Source: an uncultured Alphaproteobacteria bacterium (GTDB lineage: Bacteria > Electryoneota > RPQS01). Taken from it: a DNA stretch of 64,000 nt. Positions 6,549 to 52,573 of this stretch are shown one piece after another. A model generated the notes under the pieces. It was given only the letters and a program-made list of their open reading frames with translations, was not told the DNA's origin and did not search any database. The DNA is taken from assembly GCA_964587105.1 (NCBI GenBank), contig CAZPKG010000001.1, positions 115,508 through 179,507 of the forward strand, given 5' to 3'. Position 1 is the first letter of the stretch; the number at the start of each line of letters is the position of its first letter. A program made the position numbers and the translations under genes.

Positions 6549-9500
6549 CTACTCGGCGCGAACATTAAAGAACCGCAAATTGTTCGGATCGGCGTCAAAG
6601 TCCCATGTCCAATTGGTGGAAGTTGTAGAACCCAATTCGACGGGCGAAAGCTCAAGCTGTTCGAACGACGTTGCGCCGTAGATCAAATAGTGCGATGCCC
6701 CGTTCACTGGGTACCAATTCAGTTGGATTTCGGTTCCGGCAGTAACGGCAATCGAAAGACCGAGCGGAGGAGTCAAGACGGATTGCAGGACATATTCATC
6801 CGCTCCGATGCAAGGCACGGCCGGACGACTGTCTCCGTCAATGTCGGTCGATACTTGCTGAAGTGCGATGCCCTGTGCAAACATTGTGGAGTCGGTTGGC
6901 TGAATATGCAGGTCGGTCGAGGAGATATAGCTTACATGCAAATTGAGGCTCTGGGCATCCTGTCCAGTTGCCTGCCAACTTGCGAGGCTCGCATAGTTCT
7001 GCGTTCCGAGACCGGCAAACCTGAAGTTTGTCGAATTTCCCCACAGACAATTGTAATCGGAGATGACGTCCGCTCCAACCTCGATATCCAAACCGTAACT
7101 TGGAACATCATTCTCATAGACCATTACGCAGTTGTTGTAGATTTCATGCTGGGTCCCGGTAGAGACGAACACTCCGGAGGTTTCATTGTCCGCAGGTGAG
7201 TCGTCCAACCTAATACTGTTATTGGCGACGACGTGATTACCACTCGACAGATAAATTCCGCGTGAACGAAGGGAAGTCAATTGTGAGTATCCGTAGATGA
7301 AATTATTGACAATCTCAACGGATGAAGTAATACCCGGAGCGGAATAGACTCCGCAAGCGCGATTGGTGCGCGGTCCGTTGCCGTCGAGAAATCCGTGAAT
7401 CTTATTGCCGTCCACGCGAAGCGATCCGTTCTCACCAATCTGGACAATGTAAACTCCATAACAGGCTCCGGCCGGGCCGACATTGGAACCGGGGCGAATG
7501 TCGTTGCCCGAAATCAGCGCTTCATGCTGATGATCCACCCACACTCCGTAGTAAACATCCGAGATATCATTTCCCGAAACGATATTGCCATGCGAAATCT
7601 GTGAATTTGCGCTGGTCAACGAGACGCCGATGTAGCAGGCGGAAACTGTATTGCCTGTGATTGTATTCCCGTGGCAATCGGAACCGGAGACACGAATCCC
7701 GACCGTACCTAAATCTCCTGATCCGCTACCGGTGACGACGCATCTATCAATCACATTGTTGCAGGACGTGTTGTCCAATGAAATCCCAATTGCCGTGCCC
7801 GCTTCAGCAGTGATGCCAAGTTGTCTTAATTCGATAAAGTCGGCGTCATGAAAGAGCACTACTGCTTCCGAATTCGCCGCTGTGATCGTCGTTCCAATTG
7901 GATCAAGCGATTCAATGATAACGTGACGCAAACTGTCAGCGCCGGGGATTGCATTGAGAACCAGCGGACCCTGATGAGCCTGCTGCCCAAGCAACACGTA
8001 CAGTTCACCGGCAATCCCGCGCCAGCGCAAATGCTCGGAAAGCTCTGCCAATGTCCCGAAGCTTGAACGGCTCCCGCCGACAAATACACTATCTGAAAGC
8101 GGCGCCCCGGAGATTACAATAGACTGACTTTTCGAATCATTCGCTGCGACTGCATCGCCGGGCGCGAAGGCCGACACTCTGATTGAACCATAGGCCAACT
8201 CAACCTCTGGTGAACTCCAATTCCAAAGCAGTTCGACTTCAGTCCCGTGTGCAATCGAAAATAGTTGGGAATCCACGGGGTCTTCATTGAAATACAACGT
8301 CGCTTGGGCGCCGGTAATGTCGGACTGTCCAACGTTTCCGACGACTGAGAAGAGTTGTTGTAACGTGTTGGCCGGAGCGGGGATCCACGGAATGCCAACG
8401 GACTGCACCGCAAGATCAATTACCGCCGCCTGATAGACGAACTCATCGACGCCAATATCGGGAGTTGAATCGCGCGGCTCGCCGTCTGCATCGAAAGCGA
8501 CCGCCGGAATATACAAACCGCGATTCGACGGTCCTGCCGCGTCAGGTCGCAAGTGAAAATCGACAGGCGACTGAAAACCTGCCGGAGCGGCTGTACTCGC
8601 GCTGTCCTGTCCGGTTGCTGTTGACCAGGCGGACAACGTTTGATAGTCGCCGTCGAGGTTTGAATGACCAAAGCGGAATTGCGTATTCGTGCCGGGGCCG
8701 TCATACAGATTGTGATTGGCGGCTATCACTCCGCCCGTCCATTCGATGAAGCGAGCGATGGCCTGCGGATCGGTGATCTGAATGATGTTGTTCAGCAAGC
8801 TCGCCGCAGTTTGAGTTCCTGATACAGAAATTCCGGTGATATTCGATGAGAGCAAATCCCCAATGCTAACCGTATTGTGATAGAACAGCGCGGTTCCGCT
8901 CGTTGCCGACAAACCAACTACGGCGCCGCTTGTGAGCGAGTTGAAATCACCAATCCAATTGTTGGCCGCGAATAGCACTCCCGCTCCCGACTCGGCTGAA
9001 ATTGCCGTGATTGTTCCGGCGGCGAGGCATTGCGTGATGCGATTATTAAGCACTCTGACCGTATCCGGCGGAGAGAGATTCAAAACGCGAATCCCATAGC
9101 AGGGCGACGGTGCGTTGGCGAAGCCCGCCGTGATCGAGCAATTTTCAATCAGAAGATTCTGCTGCCAACTCGCTTGAATGGAGGTGCGAACCCCGGAGAT
9201 ATTGCAATCTCGCACGATGTTTCCGGCAGAGCTTTGTCCGCTCGCGCCTTCAAAGCGAAGGCCCGTGTAGGCAGTGTTGATATCGAGTTGCTGAAAGAGA
9301 TTGTCTGAGCAACCCGTTGAGACCAACAGCGTGGTGGCGGAGGATTGATCTTGAGATGCGCACGCCAAATGGCAATTGCGAATCACATTGTGGTGGCTGT
9401 TGTTCGCGATCTTCATCGTCTCAAGCGTCGCGCCGCTGCCTTGAAGTATCAATCCTTCAATGGTTACATACGAGACATTCGACAACAGAACCGACGGTTG

Positions 9501-11435
9501 ACTGCCGGGCGGAGAAATCTGCACAATTCCTTCGGAGAAGGGAGATTGTTGAATTGTAAGTGTCGAGACTGAATTGAGTCCAGAGACGTTTTCAAGAGTG
9601 AGATTTTCCGGATAGAGCCCGGCCTCGAGATTCAAAACAACAGGACCGTCCACACCGCGATGATTGAGTTCATTCAGCGCAGTTGAGAGCGTCGGGAAAT
9701 CCGCACCGAAGCCACCGATCTGATAGGTTCCTGACATCGGAAGGCCCGTGACGGCAAGATTAAAGGCGACGGCGTTGTCGGAGGGATTTGCGTCTGTGCC
9801 GAGAATGGTTTCAACAATTAGCTCGGAGGTCGTATGAGCCGAATCGGTGCTCCACAGAAGCAAAAAGGTGTCGGCTTGCGAGGGGATTAGACTAATGAGC
9901 GCTTCTGCGCGTGCGGTATCGTCGTAAGTTAATCTTAAGGGCAGATCGAGAACAGGCGAAGAACCGCGATTTTGCACGACAACTTCGAGCCGAAGGAGAG
10001 AATACTCGGGAAATGACTGTGGCATTCCGAGCACATTGAGAATTGCAACGTCGGAGGCCGGCGCGTCAAACAAGTATTCATCGGCCCCGATGTCCGGTGG
10101 TTGAAAGCGGAGTTGACCGTCAATATCTGACGTCACGTCCAAAGCAACCGCGCCATTCTGATGAGGAAGGGCGGACGATTGCTGGAGATGCAAATCGGAA
10201 TTTGATACAAACAGCGGATTGCCGGAATAGCTTGACAAATCGAGTCCGGTTGTTTGCCATTCGGCAAGTGTCGTAAACGGATTAATCAACCATCCAACTT
10301 TGTAGGCCGTTCCCGTGCCGTAGAAGAGATTGTTGTTGGACACGATCGGCGCGGCTTGAGTCAGCATGAAGGCGTTGTAGGCGGGGCGGGTGGCTTCCTG
10401 ATTCGCCAAAATATTGTTTAGCAAAGTCAAGCTGGCATCAGGCGCAATCAAACCGTTATAGAGTGAGTAGGCCGTGCCCGTTGCCGCGACGTCATTGACC
10501 AGAATGCTATTGTTGACAAGGCGATTTTGACCGCCGGAAACGAAGATTGCCCGGACTTGTGACGAGCCGGTGTTTTGGAAACCGTAGATGAAATTATTGC
10601 TTGCTTGCAGGAAGGCTTGAGAGGAAAGCGGATTATGGCGAATGGCGACGGCGTAGCCGCTGCCGGTTTTGATTTGCGAGAGACTGTTGCTGATGACCAA
10701 AACGCTGTCGGACGGGTTCTGCGTGCCTATGTTGACTGCCGTCGCGCCGCTGCCAAGACCGAGATTGGGTTTGATATCGCAGCCGGTGATTCTGCAAAGG
10801 GTTTGTCGAGAGACGCTAACGCCTTGCTGGACGCTGTCAATTACACAATTGACAATCGAATTGCCGAAAGCAGATGTGGAGTAGCCATCGAGAAAGACTG
10901 CATCTGACGCGCGGCGAATCGTGCAGCCGATGAGCGTTACGTTCTGGACGTCCGGGCCTAAAATTTCGACGGCACGGCTGGTAGAGCGGGCGGTGATGGA
11001 ACAACCAGTGAAAAGAAGATTAGCTGAGGAGCCCCAAATTCTGACGGCAGGTTGAACAACGGTTGGTGATTGGACATATATGTCCGAGAATTGCAAGTTT
11101 GCGCCATTAAAGACTTGCAAGGTCGGTAATGCGGTGTCCGCTGAAACCAAAGTGACGGGTCCTCCCTCAAACGGAGTGAGGGCAAGGGTGAAGCTCGATG
11201 AACCTGCGTAGTTGCCGATTGTGAACGGGCCGATCTGCTGGCCGGGTGTAATTGTTAGCTCTAAATCACCGTCGAGACCATAGTAGGCAACCGAGTCGAG
11301 GGCTTGGCTCAGAGACGAAAAATCCCCGTCGGTTCCCACGAGCAAACGGCCCGAAAGGAAAGCCCACGAGGAATTTGTGCAAACTACTACAAATATTAGG
11401 GTTATACCCCAAAAACGAGCTAACAAAATGTTCAT
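6549..11435 (-). CDS. Very large (1628 aa) secreted parallel beta-helix repeat protein with C-terminal FN3-like domain. Putative surface adhesin or polysaccharide-binding protein. No T9SS CTD.
   Basis: Signal peptide MNILLARFWGITLIFVVVCTNSSWA. Many tandem PbH1-type beta-helix rungs (recurring ...N(N/C)xI..N... motifs, SGN/NNS repeats). The C-terminus has an FN3-like ...LNWYPVNGASHYLIYG... segment. It ends ...NVRAE, without the YPNPFNP tail. Confidence 0.7.
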   Translation of the reverse strand: MNILLARFWGITLIFVVVCTNSSWAFLSGRLLVGTDGDFSSLSQALDSVAYYGLDGDLELTITPGQQIGPFTIGNYAGSSSFTLALTPFEGGPVTLVSADTALPTLQVFNGANLQFSDIYVQSPTVVQPAVRIWGSSANLLFTGCSITARSTSRAVEILGPDVQNVTLIGCTIRRASDAVFLDGYSTSAFGNSIVNCVIDSVQQGVSVSRQTLCRITGCDIKPNLGLGSGATAVNIGTQNPSDSVLVISNSLSQIKTGSGYAVAIRHNPLSSQAFLQASNNFIYGFQNTGSSQVRAIFVSGGQNRLVNNSILVNDVAATGTAYSLYNGLIAPDASLTLLNNILANQEATRPAYNAFMLTQAAPIVSNNNLFYGTGTAYKVGWLINPFTTLAEWQTTGLDLSSYSGNPLFVSNSDLHLQQSSALPHQNGAVALDVTSDIDGQLRFQPPDIGADEYLFDAPASDVAILNVLGMPQSFPEYSLLRLEVVVQNRGSSPVLDLPLRLTYDDTARAEALISLIPSQADTFLLLWSTDSAHTTSELIVETILGTDANPSDNAVAFNLAVTGLPMSGTYQIGGFGADFPTLSTALNELNHRGVDGPVVLNLEAGLYPENLTLENVSGLNSVSTLTIQQSPFSEGIVQISPPGSQPSVLLSNVSYVTIEGLILQGSGATLETMKIANNSHHNVIRNCHLACASQDQSSATTLLVSTGCSDNLFQQLDINTAYTGLRFEGASGQSSAGNIVRDCNISGVRTSIQASWQQNLLIENCSITAGFANAPSPCYGIRVLNLSPPDTVRVLNNRITQCLAAGTITAISAESGAGVLFAANNWIGDFNSLTSGAVVGLSATSGTALFYHNTVSIGDLLSSNITGISVSGTQTAASLLNNIIQITDPQAIARFIEWTGGVIAANHNLYDGPGTNTQFRFGHSNLDGDYQTLSAWSTATGQDSASTAAPAGFQSPVDFHLRPDAAGPSNRGLYIPAVAFDADGEPRDSTPDIGVDEFVYQAAVIDLAVQSVGIPWIPAPANTLQQLFSVVGNVGQSDITGAQATLYFNEDPVDSQLFSIAHGTEVELLWNWSSPEVELAYGSIRVSAFAPGDAVAANDSKSQSIVISGAPLSDSVFVGGSRSSFGTLAELSEHLRWRGIAGELYVLLGQQAHQGPLVLNAIPGADSLRHVIIESLDPIGTTITAANSEAVVLFHDADFIELRQLGITAEAGTAIGISLDNTSCNNVIDRCVVTGSGSGDLGTVGIRVSGSDCHGNTITGNTVSACYIGVSLTSANSQISHGNIVSGNDISDVYYGVWVDHQHEALISGNDIRPGSNVGPAGACYGVYIVQIGENGSLRVDGNKIHGFLDGNGPRTNRACGVYSAPGITSSVEIVNNFIYGYSQLTSLRSRGIYLSSGNHVVANNSIRLDDSPADNETSGVFVSTGTQHEIYNNCVMVYENDVPSYGLDIEVGADVISDYNCLWGNSTNFRFAGLGTQNYASLASWQATGQDAQSLNLHVSYISSTDLHIQPTDSTMFAQGIALQQVSTDIDGDSRPAVPCIGADEYVLQSVLTPPLGLSIAVTAGTEIQLNWYPVNGASHYLIYGATSFEQLELSPVELGSTTSTNWTWDFDADPNNLRFFNVRAE

Positions 11436-15701: not shown

Positions 15702-16538
15702 ATGAAATACATATCATACATAATGCTGGCATTGTTCAGCACCATTTTGTTTTCGGCCTGTGACGATGAAGCTCCGGTTGAGTATGACGAGCAGATCGTT
15801 GTAGATGGTTTTCTGTGGATTGGGCATCGTTTGGAAATTAGTTTGACGAAGACCGTGCCGTTTGGTACGGCGTATTACGAAGATTCCGTCAAGGTAGGCG
15901 GTGCACAGGTTTTTGTCACGGTTGACGGTGTTACGCATGAATTGACGGAAGCGATATCTGGAATTGAAGGGACTTATGCTGCACCGGATTCAGTGCATAC
16001 TGTTGCAACGGGCAAGCGGTATGACTTGCTGGTAACCAAAGACGGTGACACGCTACGGGCGCACACTACAGCGGTTGCTCCGTTGACAATTACTCAATCA
16101 GTGCTGATGAATACCAACGGCGAAGTCACTGATTCTGCTCCTGATACACTTGAGTATGGTGGAGACGCGTTGCATCTGAAATGGACAACGGATCCTTTGA
16201 ATTTTGGCTATGCAATTTTGATTGAGAGTTTGGAAGAGGGGAAGTACGGCGAATCATGCGACTTCGGTGATGATAACGGCCCCGGAACCTACTTGTTTGT
16301 ATGGAGTACACGGTACATTGAAGAGATGGACCTGCCGTGGATCTCATTGTGCTATTCAGGACCAACACAGGTTCGCGTGTTCTCGTGCGATTCAAGCTGG
16401 TGGAATTTCGTTTCCACGATTTTGACCGGCGAAATCCGGAATGATCCTGTGTCGAACATTGAAGGCGGCAGGGGTGTTTTCTGCGCGGTTGGCGTGGACA
16501 CGTTTCAGGTTGCTGTGACTGACACTCTCGAAGACTAG
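15702..16538 (+). CDS. Lipoprotein of unknown function (possibly DUF4249-like partner of the TonB-dependent receptor)
   Basis: Lipobox LFSAC. It lies 3 nt after the receptor gene. A receptor plus DUF4249 pairing is common in FCB genomes, which I recall but did not verify. Confidence 0.5.
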   Translation: MKYISYIMLALFSTILFSACDDEAPVEYDEQIVVDGFLWIGHRLEISLTKTVPFGTAYYEDSVKVGGAQVFVTVDGVTHELTEAISGIEGTYAAPDSVHTVATGKRYDLLVTKDGDTLRAHTTAVAPLTITQSVLMNTNGEVTDSAPDTLEYGGDALHLKWTTDPLNFGYAILIESLEEGKYGESCDFGDDNGPGTYLFVWSTRYIEEMDLPWISLCYSGPTQVRVFSCDSSWWNFVSTILTGEIRNDPVSNIEGGRGVFCAVGVDTFQVAVTDTLED

Positions 16539-16578
16539 CTACTTGCTGAGCGATACTTCAAATTAGCATTGATGTTTT

Positions 16579-16614
16579 GATACCCCCTTAAAGTATAAGG
16601 GGGTATCTTTTTAC
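16579..16614 (+). terminator. Rho-independent terminator GATACCCCCTT-aaagtata-AGGGGGTATC-TTTTT
   Basis: Perfect 10/11-bp stem followed by a T-run, downstream of the lipoprotein gene. Confidence 0.75.
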
Positions 16615-16643
16615 TTGACTTTTCTGAAGTTTCGCTCTACATT
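16615..16643 (+). promoter_or_regulatory. Sigma70-like promoter TTGACT-N17-TACATT for the first BNR/T9SS paralog
   Basis: -35 at 16615-16620, 17-nt spacer, -10 at 16638-16643. The whole promoter and UTR is duplicated almost base-for-base upstream of the second paralog at 18699..18727. Confidence 0.55.
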
Positions 16644-16692
16644 CAGGAAACTTGGAATTTGGGTCCCATATTTTACTCCGCGGAGGTGTCCC

Positions 16693-18612
16693 ATGGAGCG
16701 GCGCGTTATTTTGGTCTTGATGATTGTTTGTTCAGTATTTACGAGTGCATTTGCGAAAAATGCCAAAGATCGTTTGGTTGGGCCGGCGGCAACGACAGGT
16801 TTTGAATCGGTTTCTGCGGCAAGTGTGCAGAGGTTGCCGGGAAGTCCTCTGGATACAGAGGGCGGTACCGAAAACTCAACTTATGCTGTTGTTGGTACAA
16901 CTTGGTATGACTACCAAACCAACGGCACGAACGGCAAGCAGATTGCAGTTGATCCGACTGGAAAAGTACATGTGGCTTGGACGAATGGAGAGCAAGATGG
17001 CTCGGCCGAACGTCATGTTTATTACAACGTGTGGGATCCTGAGCTTGGAAGCTTCATGTTTAATGGCGGTGTGCGCGTGGATGCCGGATCGCGCGCGGGA
17101 TTTGCCAACATTGCGGCGGCTGCGAACGGATTTGGTTTCCCGGCATTTCACGAGGTAGCGATTTCGCTGCCGCATGCGACGGCATCAATTGACTTCTTGC
17201 CTACCAGCGGTGCGTTTACGGGGTTCGAGGTTCCTTATCCGGCAGGCGAACCGCAGATTATCTGGCCACACATTGATATGGATATCAACGGCAAGATTCA
17301 CATGGTCGCGACGGAGAGTGGCGGGGCTTCAGCAGACTATTATGCGCGCGGAGTGCCGCAGTATGACGGCGGATTTGGTTTGGAAATTGTCTGGGAGCAA
17401 GGTTTTGATACCCCGTTTGTCGATGCGACATTTATCACGATGGATGTGGCGTGCTCACGCTCGAGTGAAAAGGTTGCCGTGGCGTGGATTGCCGATCCGG
17501 TTGGTGACCATGATAGCGAGAACATTTGGATGAAAGTCTCGGACGACGGCGGCGAGTCGTGGGGCGATGACATTCCTGTTACAAACATTCCGCCGATTGA
17601 TACCATGTGCGTGATTAACGGCGGCGATTGGATTACCTGCAATGCGGATACGTTCCGTCCGTGGGTGGATTTGTCGATTATCTTGGATGATCAAGACAAC
17701 GTACACATTGCTTATACGGCGCAGGCGTCGTTCTATTTTGATGAAACGGGTGCTGCGAATCCGGCCGGTTACGTCTATGCGACGTTGTGGCACTGGGGCG
17801 AAGATCGTAGAGAATTTAGCTTGATTAATCAGGCTTATTTTGCTAACGACTCCGTCGCACTCGGCGTGAATAATTTGATGTGTCATCGTCCCAGTTTGGC
17901 GATTGATACGACAACGGACTATCTGTATTGCTCGTTCCAGCAGTTTGACCAGCACGCTTACAGCGACGCGGGCTATCCGATGGGTGAATTTTATATGACG
18001 GTTTCGACGGATAACGGACAGACGTGGGCGGTTGCTACAAATGTGAGCAACACGCCGGGTGAGCCGAATCAGGTCACAGGCGAAGACCCGAGTGAACGCG
18101 ATATTACTACTGCGAAGTATGTGACCGACGGTATCATTCACACGATGTACCAGCACGATTACGCGGCAGGCAGCGCGGTGGCGTCGAGCGGTCCGGAAGG
18201 TCCGACGAGTTTGAACGAGATGATTTACATGCAGATTCCGGTTGGTGATATTCCGACGGAGCCGCGGCAGGAAATCTGGGCGTTCCGTGCGGACTCGACC
18301 GGTTTCCCGCAGATTGAATTGGCCGAAGAGCGTGCTGAATTGCCTGCGGGTTTCATGCTGCATCAGAACTATCCGAATCCGTTTAATCCGACGACGAACA
18401 TTCAGTTTGATTTGGCGAAGGCCGCGAATGTCAGATTGACTGTGTTTGACGTGACGGGTCGTGAAGTTGCGACTTTGATCAATAATGAAACTCTGGGCGC
18501 CGGAGTTCACACGGTGAATTTTGACGGGACAGGATTTTCCAGCGGCGTCTATTTTACGAAGCTTGAGATGGGCGGAACTTCTATGACGCGGAAAGTGGTT
18601 TTGTTGAAATAG
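16693..18612 (+). CDS. BNR/Asp-box repeat (sialidase-fold-like) secreted protein with T9SS CTD
   Basis: Start ATG at 16693 after GGAGGTGTCCC. Signal peptide MERRVILVLMIVCSVFTSAFA. Asp-box motifs SDDGGESW and STDNGQTW. C-terminal YPNPFNPTTNIQFDL...VYFTKLEMGGTSMTRKVVLLK. Confidence 0.7.
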   Translation: MERRVILVLMIVCSVFTSAFAKNAKDRLVGPAATTGFESVSAASVQRLPGSPLDTEGGTENSTYAVVGTTWYDYQTNGTNGKQIAVDPTGKVHVAWTNGEQDGSAERHVYYNVWDPELGSFMFNGGVRVDAGSRAGFANIAAAANGFGFPAFHEVAISLPHATASIDFLPTSGAFTGFEVPYPAGEPQIIWPHIDMDINGKIHMVATESGGASADYYARGVPQYDGGFGLEIVWEQGFDTPFVDATFITMDVACSRSSEKVAVAWIADPVGDHDSENIWMKVSDDGGESWGDDIPVTNIPPIDTMCVINGGDWITCNADTFRPWVDLSIILDDQDNVHIAYTAQASFYFDETGAANPAGYVYATLWHWGEDRREFSLINQAYFANDSVALGVNNLMCHRPSLAIDTTTDYLYCSFQQFDQHAYSDAGYPMGEFYMTVSTDNGQTWAVATNVSNTPGEPNQVTGEDPSERDITTAKYVTDGIIHTMYQHDYAAGSAVASSGPEGPTSLNEMIYMQIPVGDIPTEPRQEIWAFRADSTGFPQIELAEERAELPAGFMLHQNYPNPFNPTTNIQFDLAKAANVRLTVFDVTGREVATLINNETLGAGVHTVNFDGTGFSSGVYFTKLEMGGTSMTRKVVLLK

Positions 18613-18627
18613 TTTTAGGCGGTCAGG

Positions 18628-18646
18628 GGCACCCGCAGCGGGTGCC
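18628..18646. repeat. Palindrome GGCACCCGC-A-GCGGGTGCC (second copy of the 391..417 element), 16 nt 3' of the BNR gene stop
   Basis: Read from the sequence. It shares the core GGGGCACCCGC-N-GCGGGTGCC with 391..417. No U-tract follows. Confidence 0.55.
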
Positions 18647-18673
18647 GCCGCGAAATCTGTAGATTTGTCACAC

Positions 18674-18700
18674 AAGCACCTCCGGATAACGGAGGTGCTT
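18674..18700 (+). terminator. Hairpin AAGCACCTCCG-gataa-CGGAGGTGCTT abutting or overlapping the -35 of the next promoter
   Basis: 11-bp perfect stem. It is positioned to insulate the second paralog's promoter from read-through. Confidence 0.45.
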
Positions 18701-18727
18701 GACTTTTGTGGAGTTTCGGTCTAAATT
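18699..18727 (+). promoter_or_regulatory. Duplicated sigma70-like promoter TTGACT-N17-TAAATT for the second BNR/T9SS paralog
   Basis: It aligns with 16615..16643: TTGACTTTT(C/G)TG(A/G)AGTTTCG(C/G)TCTA(C/A)ATTCAG ... GGGTCCC ... GGAGGTGTCCC(A/G)TG. Confidence 0.55.
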
Positions 18728-18769
18728 CAGAGCATGGGTCCCGCGTTCATTTTTCACTGGAGGTGTCCC

Positions 18770-20575
18770 GTGAAGCGCGTGGTTTTATTCAGTTTAGTTT
18801 TTGGGTTGGTTTCGGTTGTCTTTGCCCAAGAGGGCGGCACGCCGGGTTCGGTGTGGATGTATGTGGGGAGTACGTGGTATGACGCTCAAGCTTCTATAAC
18901 TCCCGCGCGAGCAATCGCAGTGGCTCCTGATGGTGAGGTACACTTTGTTTGGACCAAAGGGAGTCAAGATTTGGCATTTCGACAGGCGTTCTACAATTGT
19001 TGGAATACAGAAGCTGGCACGCTGTTAAGCCCTGAAGGTATTCGGATCAGCGCTGGCCGAACCGGTTTTCCTTCAGTTGCGTCCGGCCAGTTTGGCCACG
19101 CACTCGCGGCTTACCACGACAATGGAGGTTCACAAGTCGAAATCAAGCCAGCGATTGAATTCCTCCCTTGCAGTGGAGCGTTCACTCTGAATCTTGATTT
19201 CCCAGAGCCTCCGGTTAATACATACTTCCCGAAATCGGATGTTGATCGTTTAGGTGCATTTCATGTAGCAGGAACTTTAGAGGACAATACCGCGATCAGC
19301 GTGTTTCACGCCCGTGGAATTCCTGCGTATGAAGACGGCACAGGCTACGGAATTGACTGGGAACACACGACGACTTTACAGTCAGTTGATTACGTATATA
19401 ATACAGTCAATATCGCGTGCTCGCCTGTGTCCGATCGTGTCGCGATAGCATGGATAGTTGATCCGCCCGCAGCAAACGACGCGGAGAACATCTTGTTGTC
19501 TTACTCAGAGGATGGCGGTTGGAATTGGAACCCGCCTATATCGGTTACCGGAATTCCTGCGATTGACACGAACTGTGTTGTTGAAGGCGGCAATTGGCGT
19601 GTGTGCAACGCAGACACGTTCCGACCTTTTCGAGACTTGTCTATGATCTTTGACTACGATGATTTTCTGCATATTGCGTTTACTACAAGAGGATGGTACT
19701 ATTTCGACGAAAATGGCGACCCGAATTCAACGGTTAATACTAACGGCTCTATATGGCACTGGAGTGAAGAGGGCTTCTTCAGCCTGATAGCTTATGCATC
19801 TTCGGAACATGACTCCACGAGATTTTTAGGCGACGATAATTTGATGTGTCAACGTCCGTGTTTGGCACTTGACACCTTGAACTTTGGTCTTCATGATCCT
19901 CAATTAATTTGCTCGTTCCAGCAATTTGACAGCTTGGCTTATAGTAGTGGCGGATACGCAATCGGAGAGTATTTTGTCTCCGGCTCATATGATAGGGGGA
20001 GAAATTGGGCGATTCCTACAAATGTGAGTAATACTCCGGGAGAAATGAATGATCCCGAGGGACAGAATCCAAGCGAGCGGGATATTACGATTGCGAAGCT
20101 TGCTTATGACAATTCTATCCACGCCTTGTATTTGCACGATTATGTTGCGGGTTCGACCGGTTGGGATCAGACGCCTGCTCACTTGTGCTCACTCGTTTAC
20201 ATGCGAACGCCTATTGAAGATATCGATATGTCCCGTCTGCAGGAGAACATCCCGTTTCGAGCGGACTCGACTGGGTTCCCCACTGCCAGTGACCAAATTT
20301 CTCCCCTGAAAATCTCTTTTGAATTGCATCCTAATTACCCCAATCCGTTTAATCCGAGCACAACGATTCAGTTTGATTTGGCGAAGGCGGGGGATGTGAA
20401 ATTGATGGTGTTTGATGTGTTGGGGAAGGAAGTGGCGACGCTTGTAAACGGGAGAATGGGTGCGGGAGCGCGTTCGGCCCAGTTTGACGGTGAGAAGTTT
20501 GCGAGCGGAGTTTATTTTGCGCGGTTGTCGGTGGGGAAATTGGCGATGACGCGGAAGATGGTGCTCTTGAAATAG
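18770..20575 (+). CDS. BNR/Asp-box repeat secreted protein with T9SS CTD, tandem paralog of 16693..18612
   Basis: Track ORF starts at 18734. The conserved GGAGGTGTCCC-GTG context supports a GTG start at 18770, giving VKRVVLFSLVFGLVSVVFAQ. It is colinear with the upstream paralog (VGSTWYDAQ.../VGTTWYDYQ..., VSNTPGE...PSERDIT...). Asp-box-like SEDGGWNW and SYDRGRNW. CTD ...YPNPFNPSTTIQFDL...KMVLLK. Confidence 0.7.
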   Translation: MKRVVLFSLVFGLVSVVFAQEGGTPGSVWMYVGSTWYDAQASITPARAIAVAPDGEVHFVWTKGSQDLAFRQAFYNCWNTEAGTLLSPEGIRISAGRTGFPSVASGQFGHALAAYHDNGGSQVEIKPAIEFLPCSGAFTLNLDFPEPPVNTYFPKSDVDRLGAFHVAGTLEDNTAISVFHARGIPAYEDGTGYGIDWEHTTTLQSVDYVYNTVNIACSPVSDRVAIAWIVDPPAANDAENILLSYSEDGGWNWNPPISVTGIPAIDTNCVVEGGNWRVCNADTFRPFRDLSMIFDYDDFLHIAFTTRGWYYFDENGDPNSTVNTNGSIWHWSEEGFFSLIAYASSEHDSTRFLGDDNLMCQRPCLALDTLNFGLHDPQLICSFQQFDSLAYSSGGYAIGEYFVSGSYDRGRNWAIPTNVSNTPGEMNDPEGQNPSERDITIAKLAYDNSIHALYLHDYVAGSTGWDQTPAHLCSLVYMRTPIEDIDMSRLQENIPFRADSTGFPTASDQISPLKISFELHPNYPNPFNPSTTIQFDLAKAGDVKLMVFDVLGKEVATLVNGRMGAGARSAQFDGEKFASGVYFARLSVGKLAMTRKMVLLK

Positions 20576-20602
20576 GAAATTTGAAAAATAGGAAATAGTC
20601 AG

Positions 20603-20642
20603 ATTCCGGCGGGGAACCGCTTCGCTTAATCCCCGCTCGGCG
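20603..20642 (+). repeat. 40-nt GC-rich hairpin element ATTCCGGCGGGGAACCGCTTCGCTTAATCCCCGCTCGGCG, 27 nt 3' of a T9SS-cargo gene
   Basis: Its near-exact reverse complement occurs at 56127..56166, with 1 mismatch over about 40 nt. That copy is also immediately 3' of a T9SS-cargo gene, 1 nt after its stop. Confidence 0.6.
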
Positions 20643-20716
20643 AGTAGAGTTGTCGAGTTGCTGAACATTTTACCCCCCTTAATCCCCCCAGAAGACTGGG
20701 GGGAAATCATACTAAT

Positions 20717-21811
20717 ATGACACTTGTACCACCTTACATTGAATCATTAATTCCATACAAGCCGGGGAAGTCGGCTGAGCAGATTCGTGAGCAGTATGGG
20801 CTCAGCAAGATTATTAAGCTTGCTTCCAATGAAAATCCGATCGGGTCTTCTCCGAAGGGAATTGAAGCCGCGAAGAACTCGTATCACGATATTCAGCTTT
20901 ATCCTGACGGCGGATTGATGCTGCGAAACAAGCTTGCGAAACTTTATGAAGTCAAGCTTGACAACGTGGTCGTGGGAAACGGATCAGAATCCATTTTGGC
21001 CAACATCGTGCGCACGTTCATGGACGACGATGAAGAGGTCTTGACCGTCGCCGGAACGTTTATCGGCATCTATGTCGCGGCATGGTCGCGCGGTGTAAAA
21101 CTGGTGACGCTGCCGCTGAAGGATTTCGCCTTTGATCTTGAGGCAATTGCCGACGCGATCAACCCGAAGACGAAGATTATCTATCTTTCGAATCCGAATA
21201 ATCCGACGGGGACTTACTTCAAGAAGCATGAGTTTGAAAAATTCATGAAGCGTGTGCCGTCGCGGACTTTGGTGATATTGGACGAAGCCTATTGCGAATA
21301 TGCGGAAGATTTCGACGACTATCCCGATTCGATGACATACCGGCTTGACAATGTGATAACGCTCAGAACGTTTTCCAAGGCCTATGGCTTAGCCGCCGTG
21401 CGAATCGGATACGGATTTGCGCATGAGGATTTGTGCCGCAATGTTTTGAAAGTCAAGCTGCCGTTCGAGCCGTCGAGCATTGCGCAAGCCGCCGGTGCGG
21501 GCGCTCTTGATGACACGGAGTTTTTGAAGCTCACGCAGGACACAAATCGTGCGGGCCGCATGGAAATGCCCAAGCTTTATGACGAACTCGGACTAAAATA
21601 CATTCCGACAGCGGCGAATTTCTTTATGTTACCGTTTGAAACTGAAGAGGAAGCGCTGAAGTTTTCGGAGGAGCTTGAACGGCGCGGAGTTATTGTCAGG
21701 CCTTTGCGCGGGTTCATGCTGCCGCATTGTGTGCGGATAACGATCGGCACGAAAGAGCAGAATGAGATGCTGTCGGGCGCGCTTCGCGAGATTTGTTTGA
21801 AGAAGGTTTGA
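20717..21811 (+). CDS. hisC: Histidinol-phosphate aminotransferase
   Basis: KLASNENPIG, YPD and SKAYGLAAVRIGYG (PLP-lysine region), 364 aa, class II aminotransferase layout. Confidence 0.8.
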   Translation: MTLVPPYIESLIPYKPGKSAEQIREQYGLSKIIKLASNENPIGSSPKGIEAAKNSYHDIQLYPDGGLMLRNKLAKLYEVKLDNVVVGNGSESILANIVRTFMDDDEEVLTVAGTFIGIYVAAWSRGVKLVTLPLKDFAFDLEAIADAINPKTKIIYLSNPNNPTGTYFKKHEFEKFMKRVPSRTLVILDEAYCEYAEDFDDYPDSMTYRLDNVITLRTFSKAYGLAAVRIGYGFAHEDLCRNVLKVKLPFEPSSIAQAAGAGALDDTEFLKLTQDTNRAGRMEMPKLYDELGLKYIPTAANFFMLPFETEEEALKFSEELERRGVIVRPLRGFMLPHCVRITIGTKEQNEMLSGALREICLKKV

Positions 21812-51857: not shown

Positions 51858-51907
51858 CATCTGGTCTTGGGTCCCGGGTAGATAAACCCGCATTGCGGAG
51901 GTGCTTC

Positions 51908-52573
51908 ATGTTTAGAGCTTCTCGTTCCGCACAATTAGTTTTTGGACTTTTGGTATTTGCAGCAATTGCGAATGCCCAAAATGTATCCAACGGCCTCTCG
52001 TGGGGCTTCACGCGCACGTACTGGGACGGCACATGGTATGAAGACGGTTATGCAGGTGCTGGAACAGGCGGCAACATGATTAGCTTCAGACGCGAAATGC
52101 CGATGAACAATCAGACGCGCATCAACGTCATGGGTAGCTACAGTTGGCTGCGGCACACGACGACGACGTTGCTTGAGCCGGTGATTATCGACCCGTTGAC
52201 CGATGAAGTGATTTCCGGCGGCATGATGGCCACGCGCACAGATCACACCTACTTCCGTGAAATTGAGTTGGCCGCGCACATTCACCAGTATCTCGACAGC
52301 GAAGGCCATTCAACATTCTACATCGGTGGCGGCCCGTCCGCCCGTTGGGGTTCAGCAGGTATTCGTGAGGAACATTCACGCAAATCAGATTTTCACACCA
52401 AGGCCGCGTGGTTCGGATTGTCTGCGCTTGTGGGAATGCGCCAGCAGTGGGCCGACGATGGGCTGGTAACTTTTTTCGAGCCGCGATTGCTGTGGAGTCC
52501 CGATCCTTCCGATCGTTTTCAAGAAACTTTCCCGCCCGTCAACTTGATTGTCGCGATGGGCGTACTCTGGTAA
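51908..52573 (+). CDS. Secreted hypothetical protein, possibly a small outer-membrane beta-barrel
   Basis: Track ORF 51704..52573 overlaps proS. An internal ATG at 51908 has a GGAGGTG RBS and gives the signal peptide MFRASRSAQLVFGLLVFAAIANA. The C-terminal residue is aromatic (W). Confidence 0.5.
   Translation: MFRASRSAQLVFGLLVFAAIANAQNVSNGLSWGFTRTYWDGTWYEDGYAGAGTGGNMISFRREMPMNNQTRINVMGSYSWLRHTTTTLLEPVIIDPLTDEVISGGMMATRTDHTYFREIELAAHIHQYLDSEGHSTFYIGGGPSARWGSAGIREEHSRKSDFHTKAAWFGLSALVGMRQQWADDGLVTFFEPRLLWSPDPSDRFQETFPPVNLIVAMGVLW

Follow-up and report, generated by a model that had tools for sequence, protein, structure and literature searches.

Type A cargo proteins of the type IX secretion system (T9SS) of the Fibrobacteres-Chlorobi-Bacteroidetes (FCB) superphylum are recognised by a C-terminal sorting domain (TIGR04183 or PF18962). 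Propellers of one general kind are found in sialidases and in enzymes of families GH145, PL42, PL24 and PL25, and polysaccharide utilisation loci (PUL) can combine a TonB-dependent transporter with a lid. Genes for surface proteins may also have conserved ends and a hypervariable centre kept by recombination, as in the flagellin gene fliC. Likenesses to each of these were found at two adjacent genes, g1 and g2, within a 64,000-nucleotide (nt) stretch of contig CAZPKG010000001.1 (the whole stretch is called the window below). The pair probably results from an ancient tandem duplication, in a Calditrichota/KSB1-like lineage, of a complete transcription unit, in which a terminator hairpin and a strong sigma-70-type promoter precede a short leader and the coding sequence. 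An earlier reading of the window from its letters alone (the sequence-only reading) had proposed that the duplication carried promoter, leader and ribosome-binding context along with the gene, and the comparisons described here support it. The features concerned are the following.

16693..18612, plus strand: g1, 639 amino acids, ATG start; predicted secreted beta-propeller with a type A T9SS sorting domain, the conserved paralog
18770..20575, plus strand: g2, 601 amino acids, GTG start; paralog with a type A T9SS sorting domain
16615..16643, plus strand: putative g1 promoter, sigma-70-type; -35 TTGACT at 16615-16620, 17-nt spacer, -10 TACATT at 16638-16643
18699..18727, plus strand: putative g2 promoter, sigma-70-type; -35 TTGACT at 18699-18704, 17-nt spacer, -10 TAAATT at 18722-18727
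16661..16667, plus strand: g1 leader motif GGGTCCC, conserved across the upstream regions tabulated from relatives
18736..18742, plus strand: g2 leader motif GGGTCCC, 8 nt 3' of the -10
16682..16692, plus strand: g1 extended Shine-Dalgarno and spacer, GGAGGTGTCCC, abutting the ATG
18759..18769, plus strand: g2 extended Shine-Dalgarno and spacer, GGAGGTGTCCC, abutting the GTG

The two proteins were found to be 47% identical over 591 residues (BLASTP, E 2e-180), and the genes are adjacent, colinear, on the same strand and each other's nearest clade, so that the coordinates and the colinear paralogy first read from the letters were confirmed. The same alignment contains the common NVSNTPGE...PSERDIT block and two S-x-D-x-G-x-x-W motifs (Asp-boxes) in each protein which, with the T9SS sorting domain (see below), had also been recognised correctly. 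The coding DNA of g1 and g2 is 55% identical, and four-fold degenerate sites at conserved residues agree in 29% of cases, which is saturation. The g2 protein is a 100% match to database protein P0041. Its proposed GTG start was upheld, because the g2 orthologs of two relatives (L002 and L010) have an ATG at exactly this position after the same GGAGGTGTCCC. An in-frame ATG at 18734, at which gene callers start P0034, sits within the conserved non-coding element bearing GGGTCCC and is matched by no ATG in g1, L002 g2 or L010 g2; the alignment thus indicates that the GTG at 18770, and not this ATG, is the start of g2.

Loci of relatives were gathered for proteins 93% to 50% identical to g1. The tandem g1-g2 arrangement is present in the window, L001, L002, L010 and L160; g2 is missing in L011, and L003 and L006 have a different lipoprotein gene after g1. 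In a neighbour-joining tree of 76 full-length homologs, the g1-type and g2-type proteins form sister clades which each span several species, with longer branches for g2, and the duplication is considered ancient for this reason. On this tree it precedes the split of all of these genomes and postdates the divergence of outgroups, P0011 and P0016 among them.

A 32-nt promoter pattern taken from the pair occurs in the window only at 16615 and 18699 (chance expectation 0), and exact matches to GGAGGTGTCCCRTG only at 16682 and 18759. The near base-for-base similarity of the two upstream regions held under alignment statistics, with 29 of 33 positions identical in a local alignment (z = 14.3 against 1000 dinucleotide-preserving shuffles). 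The two promoters had been described as identical; the -35 and the spacer length of 17 nt are indeed the same, but the -10 differs by one base (TACATT vs TAAATT), and the two are near-identical. Among approximately 43 gene starts in the window no other has the promoter block, and GGGTCCC was otherwise found only at that of the gene at 51908. Both the block and the leader motif were also missing from 430 kb of other T9SS-cargo loci, these being metagenome contigs found with the family alignment which are mostly generic matches to the T9SS sorting domain and hold no new orthologous upstream regions. A profile of the leader (nhmmer) recovered every g1 and g2 leader in approximately 190 kb of related DNA, with E values of 1e-5 to 1e-8.

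Fourteen upstream regions were tabulated (eight of g1, five of g2 and one of the outgroup L157) and share one layout, namely GC-TTGACT, 17 nt, a TAnATT-like hexamer, 8-18 nt, GGGTCCC, 12-17 nt, GGAGGTGTCCC and the start codon. One region has TTGATT as its -35 and two carry a GTCAC variant of GGAGGTGTCCC. The spacer is exactly 17 nt long in all of them while its sequence varies, being almost wholly different in L002; in the column counts of 13 sequences, positions 1-9 together with T24, A25, A27, T28 and T29 are invariant or nearly so. Near-consensus hexamers at the 16-18 nt spacing of sigma-70 promoters are thus kept in the orthologs, and invariant hexamers around a variable spacer are as expected of a real -35/-10 promoter under selection. 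The outgroup L157, with a protein 52% identical, has the hairpin, the promoter and GGGTCCC, followed by a longer leader and a different Shine-Dalgarno context. In the more distant L158 only TTGACA, 17 nt and TACATT are seen.

As a side observation, a GGAGGT Shine-Dalgarno at proper spacing precedes only five genes of the window (starts 2630, 16693, 18770, 23266 and 51908); all five encode signal-peptide-like N-termini, and four of the five have a T9SS sorting domain.

While the upstream similarity had been seen correctly by the sequence-only reading, the conserved unit itself starts farther 5' and includes a GC-rich hairpin in most relatives. Three hairpins of the window are relevant here.

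16579..16612, plus strand: terminator-like hairpin and T-run before g1, 3' of the DUF4249 gene; 12 pairs, loop of 5, TTTTT tail in the terminator scan
18628..18646, plus strand: first GC-rich hairpin past the g1 stop codon, GGCACCC-GCAGC-GGGTGCC, without a T-run
18673..18701, plus strand: conserved hairpin before g2, CAAGCACCTCCG-GATAA-CGGAGGTGCTTG, from the terminator scan

The g2 -35 begins within the 3' arm of the hairpin at 18673..18701, and the ACTTTT thereafter forms the T-tract. Its consensus, AAGC(A/G)CCTCC-loop-GGAGG(T/C)GCTT, lies immediately 5' of the -35 and overlaps it in most relatives. As the hairpin is near-identical before g1 (L010, L011) and before g2 (window, L001, L010, L160), the duplicated unit would have begun at the hairpin. 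RNAalifold predicted 11 pairs from 11 sequences, four of them with compensatory changes, so that the GC-rich stem-loop, T-tract and compensatory change of an intrinsic terminator are all present, and the terminator scan called both the hairpin before g1 and that before g2. The one at 18673..18701 is likely to be the terminator of g1. Nowhere in approximately 190 kb of related DNA is this hairpin found other than 5' of g1 and g2, and the idea of the hairpin-promoter block as a dispersed repeat or mobile element was rejected on this ground. The hairpin at 18628..18646 is not conserved in relatives, and the spacer at 18600-18650 could not be aligned with that of L001 or L160.

Before g1, the ancestral hairpin (AAGCACCTCC...GGAGGTGCTT) is kept in L002, L003, L006, L010 and L011, and that at 16579..16612 is an unrelated replacement in the sublineage of the window. 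Three close relatives carry three unrelated hairpins with long T-runs at this site (window 16579-16612, L001:5880-5925 and L008:5890-5925) next to an unchanged g1 promoter; terminator turnover is thus rapid beside a frozen promoter.

A natural control is provided by L003 and L006, in which no coding remnant of g2 is left. The hairpin is intact there, with a better T-run, and the -35 (TTGTTT, TTGCTT), the -10 (TAACAA, TAGCGG) and GGGTCCC (GGGCGGG or absent) have decayed. Where the promoter has decayed, the T-tract is longer than the short ACTTTT seen where the two overlap. This comparison indicates a division of roles, in which the hairpin serves the upstream gene as terminator and the promoter and leader serve g2. 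The earlier suggestion that promoter and leader are under selection was supported: because the non-coding block is kept in 13 regions despite saturated synonymous sites and decays upon gene loss, purifying selection appears to be the main cause of its conservation.

A further hairpin, CCCCCC-AGAAGACT-GGGGGG, lies at 20684-20703 between g2 and the aminotransferase gene. A near-identical hairpin stands directly 3' of g1 in L006 (approximately 7998-8017), a genome without g2. The matching positions are consistent with deletion or replacement of g2 between conserved flanks.

The leader motif GGGTCCC is exact in 11 of the 14 tabulated regions, including the outgroup L157, and reads GGGTCCA, GGGTCCT and GGGTTTC in the other three. 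It lies 8-18 nt from the -10, of which the 8-nt distance looks ancestral, and 12-17 nt from the Shine-Dalgarno. The window contains five copies on the plus strand and none on the minus strand; three of the five are 21-28 nt 5' of a GGAGGTG Shine-Dalgarno (g1, g2 and 51869). By its position, the motif would lie at or near the 5' end of the mRNA, where it is probably a recognition site for a trans-acting factor. A pattern scan (GGGTCCN{10,20}GGAGGTGTCCCRTG) of 185,579 species genomes returned 65 matches of which the only real one is the L006 g1 site; the collection evidently lacks the genome of the window and its nearest relatives, and the other 64 matches are chance occurrences in high-GC genomes.

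The third copy stands in the leader at 51869-51907, 21 nt 5' of GGAGGTG and 11 nt past the proS stop codon, with no recognisable promoter. The gene that follows (51908..52573) encodes a 221-amino-acid signal-peptide-like protein with no match in Pfam or NCBIfam. A 66% identical ortholog (L161:2960-3005) retains GGTCCCGGG...GCGGAGGTGCT, with the motif partly kept as GGTCCC. This site is a lead rather than a finding, and a regulon is not claimed.

A possibility, put forward tentatively, is that GGGUCCC works in the mRNA, as the site of an RNA-binding protein or small RNA or as an element of 5'-end stability or translation. The motif occurs strictly in one orientation, it stands at a fairly constant 12-17 nt from the Shine-Dalgarno but at a variable distance from the promoter, and the third site lies in an operon-internal leader without a promoter. 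A further GUCCC stands immediately 5' of the start codon in nearly all genes of the g1 and g2 types, and GGGUCCC may pair functionally with this second copy, between Shine-Dalgarno and start, such that dual binding would occlude the ribosome site. Against this, folding showed no conserved secondary structure, with most leaders less stable than their shuffles (z positive in six of eight leaders, and negative only for that of window g2, at -2.2), an Rfam scan of 16400-20800 at E <= 1 gave no match, no candidate binding factor was found, and the outgroup L157 has GGGTCCC but neither the second GUCCC nor the short spacing. The leader thus matched no known class of cis-regulatory RNA, and a riboswitch or RNA thermometer was dropped in view of the Rfam result and the lack of any shared or unusually stable fold in the eight leaders.

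The suggestion of the sequence-only reading that GGGTCCC is an operator, here a DNA repressor site just 3' of the transcription start which would co-regulate g1, g2 and a few other secreted-protein genes, is judged unlikely. In its favour, GGG-N-CCC forms an inverted repeat, the motif is exact or altered by one to three changes in all 14 regions, it lies 8 nt past the -10 in the g2 type, L011 g1 and the outgroup, and the copy 21 nt before GGAGGTG at 51869 is partly kept in the 66% identical ortholog. At 7 bp, however, it is very short, and it stands anywhere between 8 and 18 nt past the -10. Every copy is in the T-strand form and none reads GGGACCC, though a symmetric dimer would tolerate the latter. 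The third site, 11 nt past the proS stop codon, has neither a promoter nor a significant leader-profile score, and the scan of species genomes gave only the g1 site of one related genome. Since only the T-strand form is seen and spacing is flexible on both sides, action at the RNA level or through asymmetric recognition is a somewhat better fit.

That recurrent gene conversion (concerted evolution) between the tandem copies, and not purifying selection, keeps promoter and leader alike is improbable. Conversion does occur in this family, as within each of L002 and L010 the 3' sorting-domain ends of the two genes agree at 84-85%, compared with 65-70% between genomes. The window promoters share 25 of 29 positions, compared with 17-23 of 29 for g1 and its distant orthologs, and a derived -10, TAGATT, is common to L002 g1 and g2. 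Yet the paralog-diagnostic promoter positions 10, 21 and 26 track orthology in the window, L006 and L010, where C/G at spacer position 4 and GCTCTAC vs GGTCTAA are inherited orthologously. The signal-peptide codons adjoining the shared block diverge between g1 and g2, the module is also kept in the single-copy outgroup L157, and it decays after loss of g2 though g1 remains a possible donor. The 3' ends compared were L002:7667-7917 with 9593-9835 and L010:7682-7848 with 9604-9849, and bear a gene-conversion signature.

Chance, or a generic promoter and ribosome-binding style of the genome, is effectively refuted as the origin of the upstream similarity by the pattern scan, the shuffle z and the table of upstream regions: TTGACT, 17 nt, TAnATT and GGAGG are generic bacterial signals and a strong Shine-Dalgarno may be a habit of signal-peptide genes (all five GGAGGT genes of the window), but zero chance matches are expected for the 32-nt block, z reaches 14.3, and no other among approximately 43 gene starts in the window has the block, which, like the leader motif, is absent from the 430 kb of other T9SS-cargo loci.

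The most interesting aspect of the locus is a hypervariable g2 core between near-invariant ends, the first two parts of which are listed here.

18668..18873, plus strand: g2 5' block, comprising hairpin, promoter, leader, signal peptide and first ~35 codons
18874..20194, plus strand: g2 variable core; protein 41-48% identical to g2 of the closest relatives, synonymous sites saturated

The 5' block is 98-100% identical to L001 and L160 from approximately 18668 to approximately 18800, declining to approximately 18873, and in codons 1-40 all 16 of 16 four-fold sites are identical to L160. By comparison, g1 DNA is 87% and 73% identical to L001 and L160, respectively. As the identity of the 5' block exceeds this genomic background, promoter selection alone does not account for it and recombination is pointed to; part of its extreme conservation among close relatives looks like a product of recombination. 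The central region of g1 is 96% identical to L001 and 80% to L160, compared with 48% and 41% for that of g2, which is as distant from its counterparts as g1 is from g2. Similarity resumes at approximately 20195 (L001, 82%) or 20327 (L160, 87%).

Among 5.8 billion proteins, the nearest relative of the window g2 is merely 56-57% identical. At least nine deep g2 types in public data are almost alike at the N-terminus (MKRVVLFSLV.GLVS.VFAQEGGTP) and have their C-terminal ~80 residues in common, and residues 61-210 of g2 are the most variable (24-37% mean pairwise identity vs 58-82% in g1). Proteins P0035 and P0027 combine a g3-like N-terminus (g3 is described below) with other cores and a g2-like C-terminus. 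The pattern suggests that the g2 core has been swapped by recombination, with the conserved ends as arms. It is conceivable, though on balance doubtful, that a fixed ~200-nt 5' arm and sorting-domain end, with propeller cores exchanged within or between Calditrichota lineages, make this a population-level diversification locus in which GGGUCCC would be recognised by a lineage-specific regulator that also acts on a few other secreted-protein genes (e.g., 51908). If so, diversification of g2 could serve evasion of phages or predators or substrate switching. A diversity-generating retroelement was considered unlikely by reasoning alone, as divergence is saturated over approximately 1.3 kb including synonymous sites and is not limited to a short adenine-targeted repeat; a reverse transcriptase was not searched for.

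The mosaic counterparts in relatives are L001:8000-9919 and L160:4935-6815. At L008:8020-8336, in a Logan contig, the g2 5' cassette is followed by approximately 90 nt and then by a match (90%) to the last 73 nt of g2 and its downstream flank (window 20503-20628), where the contig ends; either this allele bears a deletion or the assembly has collapsed across the variable core. In L001 a third paralog, g3 (9916-11280), has an ATG overlapping the g2 stop codon, no promoter cassette and a long g1-like N-terminal linker, and the contig ends within it. The g3 N-terminus also occurs with other cores in P0027, P0031 and P0035.

On the basis of the C-terminal sorting domain, both proteins are predicted type A T9SS cargo, with scores of 41.5 (g1) and 35.9 bits (g2) for PF18962 Por_Secre_tail (cutoff 27) and of 43.4 and 35.2 bits for TIGR04183 (cutoff 23). 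Their N-termini (MERRVILVLMIVCSVFTSAFA and VKRVVLFSLVFGLVSVVFA) are signal-peptide-like by eye. Four further genes or gene ends in the window have a T9SS domain. Homologs of g1 come exclusively from metagenome-assembled genomes labelled Calditrichaeota, KSB1 or 'bacterium', and a literature search on Calditrichaeota and type IX secretion found no paper.

The assignment to BNR/Asp-box proteins held in part. A sialidase/BNR profile search, named as a check of this assignment, did not bear it out: Pfam BNR models were sub-threshold for g1 (PF02012, E 0.063; PF13088, E 0.1; PF15892, E 0.019; all far under gathering scores), and a Pfam scan of g2 gave no match to BNR, BNR_2 or sialidase models. The Asp-boxes and a propeller fold are both present. 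An AlphaFold2 model built from a 38-sequence alignment was all-beta with approximately 28 strands (predicted local distance difference test score, pLDDT, 85.6). Foldseek matched it to PDB entries with E values of 1e-10 to 1e-7 and probability 1.00 at merely ~10-12% identity, among them the PL42 rhamnose-glucuronate lyase FoRham1 (7esn), a Micromonospora sialidase (2ber, 1eut), GH145 (4irt, 5mvh, 5muk), PL25 and PL24 ulvan lyases and other propellers. The predicted fold thus also fits GH145, PL42 and PL24/25 propellers and not just sialidases; it appears to be a generic sialidase/GH145/PL42-like propeller, for which BNR membership is weak. By the model, 'sialidase-like propeller with Asp-boxes' is a safe label and 'sialidase' is unsupported.

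Orthologs of g1 that are 66-93% identical lie in a conserved neighbourhood, in the order M32 carboxypeptidase, CarboxypepD_reg-Plug-TonB-dependent receptor, DUF4249, g1, (g2), histidinol-phosphate-type aminotransferase, PD40/Tricorn-like protein and a giant fn3/FG-GAP T9SS protein. It has been proposed, with cofitness support, that non-SusC TonB-dependent transporters have DUF4249 lipoproteins as their lids (Price and Arkin, bioRxiv 10.1101/2023.03.17.533168). Contig CAZHAK010000023.1 (L068/L006), labelled uncultured Alphaproteobacteria, carries a Calditrichota-like locus with the TonB receptor, DUF4249 and g1, and its label is probably wrong.

The duplicated unit may be pictured as follows. 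The hairpin would terminate the upstream gene, that is, the DUF4249 gene before g1 and g1 before g2, and its 3' arm and T-tract, overlapping the -35 region, would insulate each copy as a transcription unit of its own. The near-consensus promoter, the 7-nt Shine-Dalgarno GGAGGTG and a leader structured no more than its shuffles suggest high independent expression of both genes. In the g2 slot, the 5' block and the sorting-domain end flank a divergent core, a likely result of homologous recombination between paralogs or lineages at these conserved ends. The proteins probably act at the cell surface beside the TonB-dependent transporter and its DUF4249 lid, on a substrate that is possibly a glycan.

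Several points weigh against this account of the locus. All that is said of the transcription start, of promoter activity and expression level and of termination at the hairpin is deduced from sequence alone. The third GGGTCCC site at 51869 was insignificant with the leader profile (nhmmer, E = 0.57), and folding of eight leaders yielded no conserved RNA structure or partner for the motif. The 25 of 29 positions shared by the window promoters exceed the values for distant g1 orthologs, and some old gene conversion in the promoter is possible on that comparison. Lastly, part of the g2 pattern could stem from differential loss out of an ancestral array of more copies, or from strain-chimeric metagenome assembly across the identical 5' block.

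Duplication with a retained cis unit combines known kinds of features in a little-studied lineage and is real but fairly ordinary; general concepts are left unchanged. The locus is a clean natural case, in an uncultured FCB-group lineage, of a terminator-promoter-leader unit duplicated with its gene and nearly frozen while synonymous sites became saturated, and it has a built-in control in that the unit decays where the gene is lost. It offers usable design information on promoter, Shine-Dalgarno and terminator for Calditrichota-like bacteria, for which we know of no promoter data, and it flags the short conserved leader motif GGGTCCC. The variability of the g2 core, if confirmed, would point to exchange that diversifies a T9SS surface protein, which is moderately interesting for the ecology of these sediment and soil bacteria.

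In comparison with described type A T9SS cargo, g1 and g2 are alike in having a signal-peptide-like N-terminus and a sorting domain above cutoffs, but their passenger is an uncharacterised propeller family which is so far found only in Calditrichota/KSB1-like metagenome genomes. Sialidase-like, GH145, PL42, PL24 and PL25 propeller enzymes resemble this family in predicted fold, and two Asp-boxes are present per protein; identity, however, is ~10-12%, Pfam BNR scores are sub-threshold and no enzymatic activity is assigned to the proteins. As in PUL-like loci with a TonB transporter and lid, g1 is in every case preceded by genes for a CarboxypepD_reg-Plug-TonB receptor and a DUF4249 protein, but the transporter is not of the SusC/SusD type, and since each of g1 and g2 is preceded by a terminator and a promoter of its own, shared regulation with the transporter does not follow. 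Compared with fliC-type genes, the variation in g2 could have arisen by paralog reassortment, inter-lineage exchange or differential loss. The g2 gene resembles them in that its near-identical 5' and conserved 3' ends enclose a core which, between close relatives, is as divergent as old paralogs are, and differs in that its 5' arm also holds the terminator, promoter and leader and its variable part is an enzyme-like propeller.

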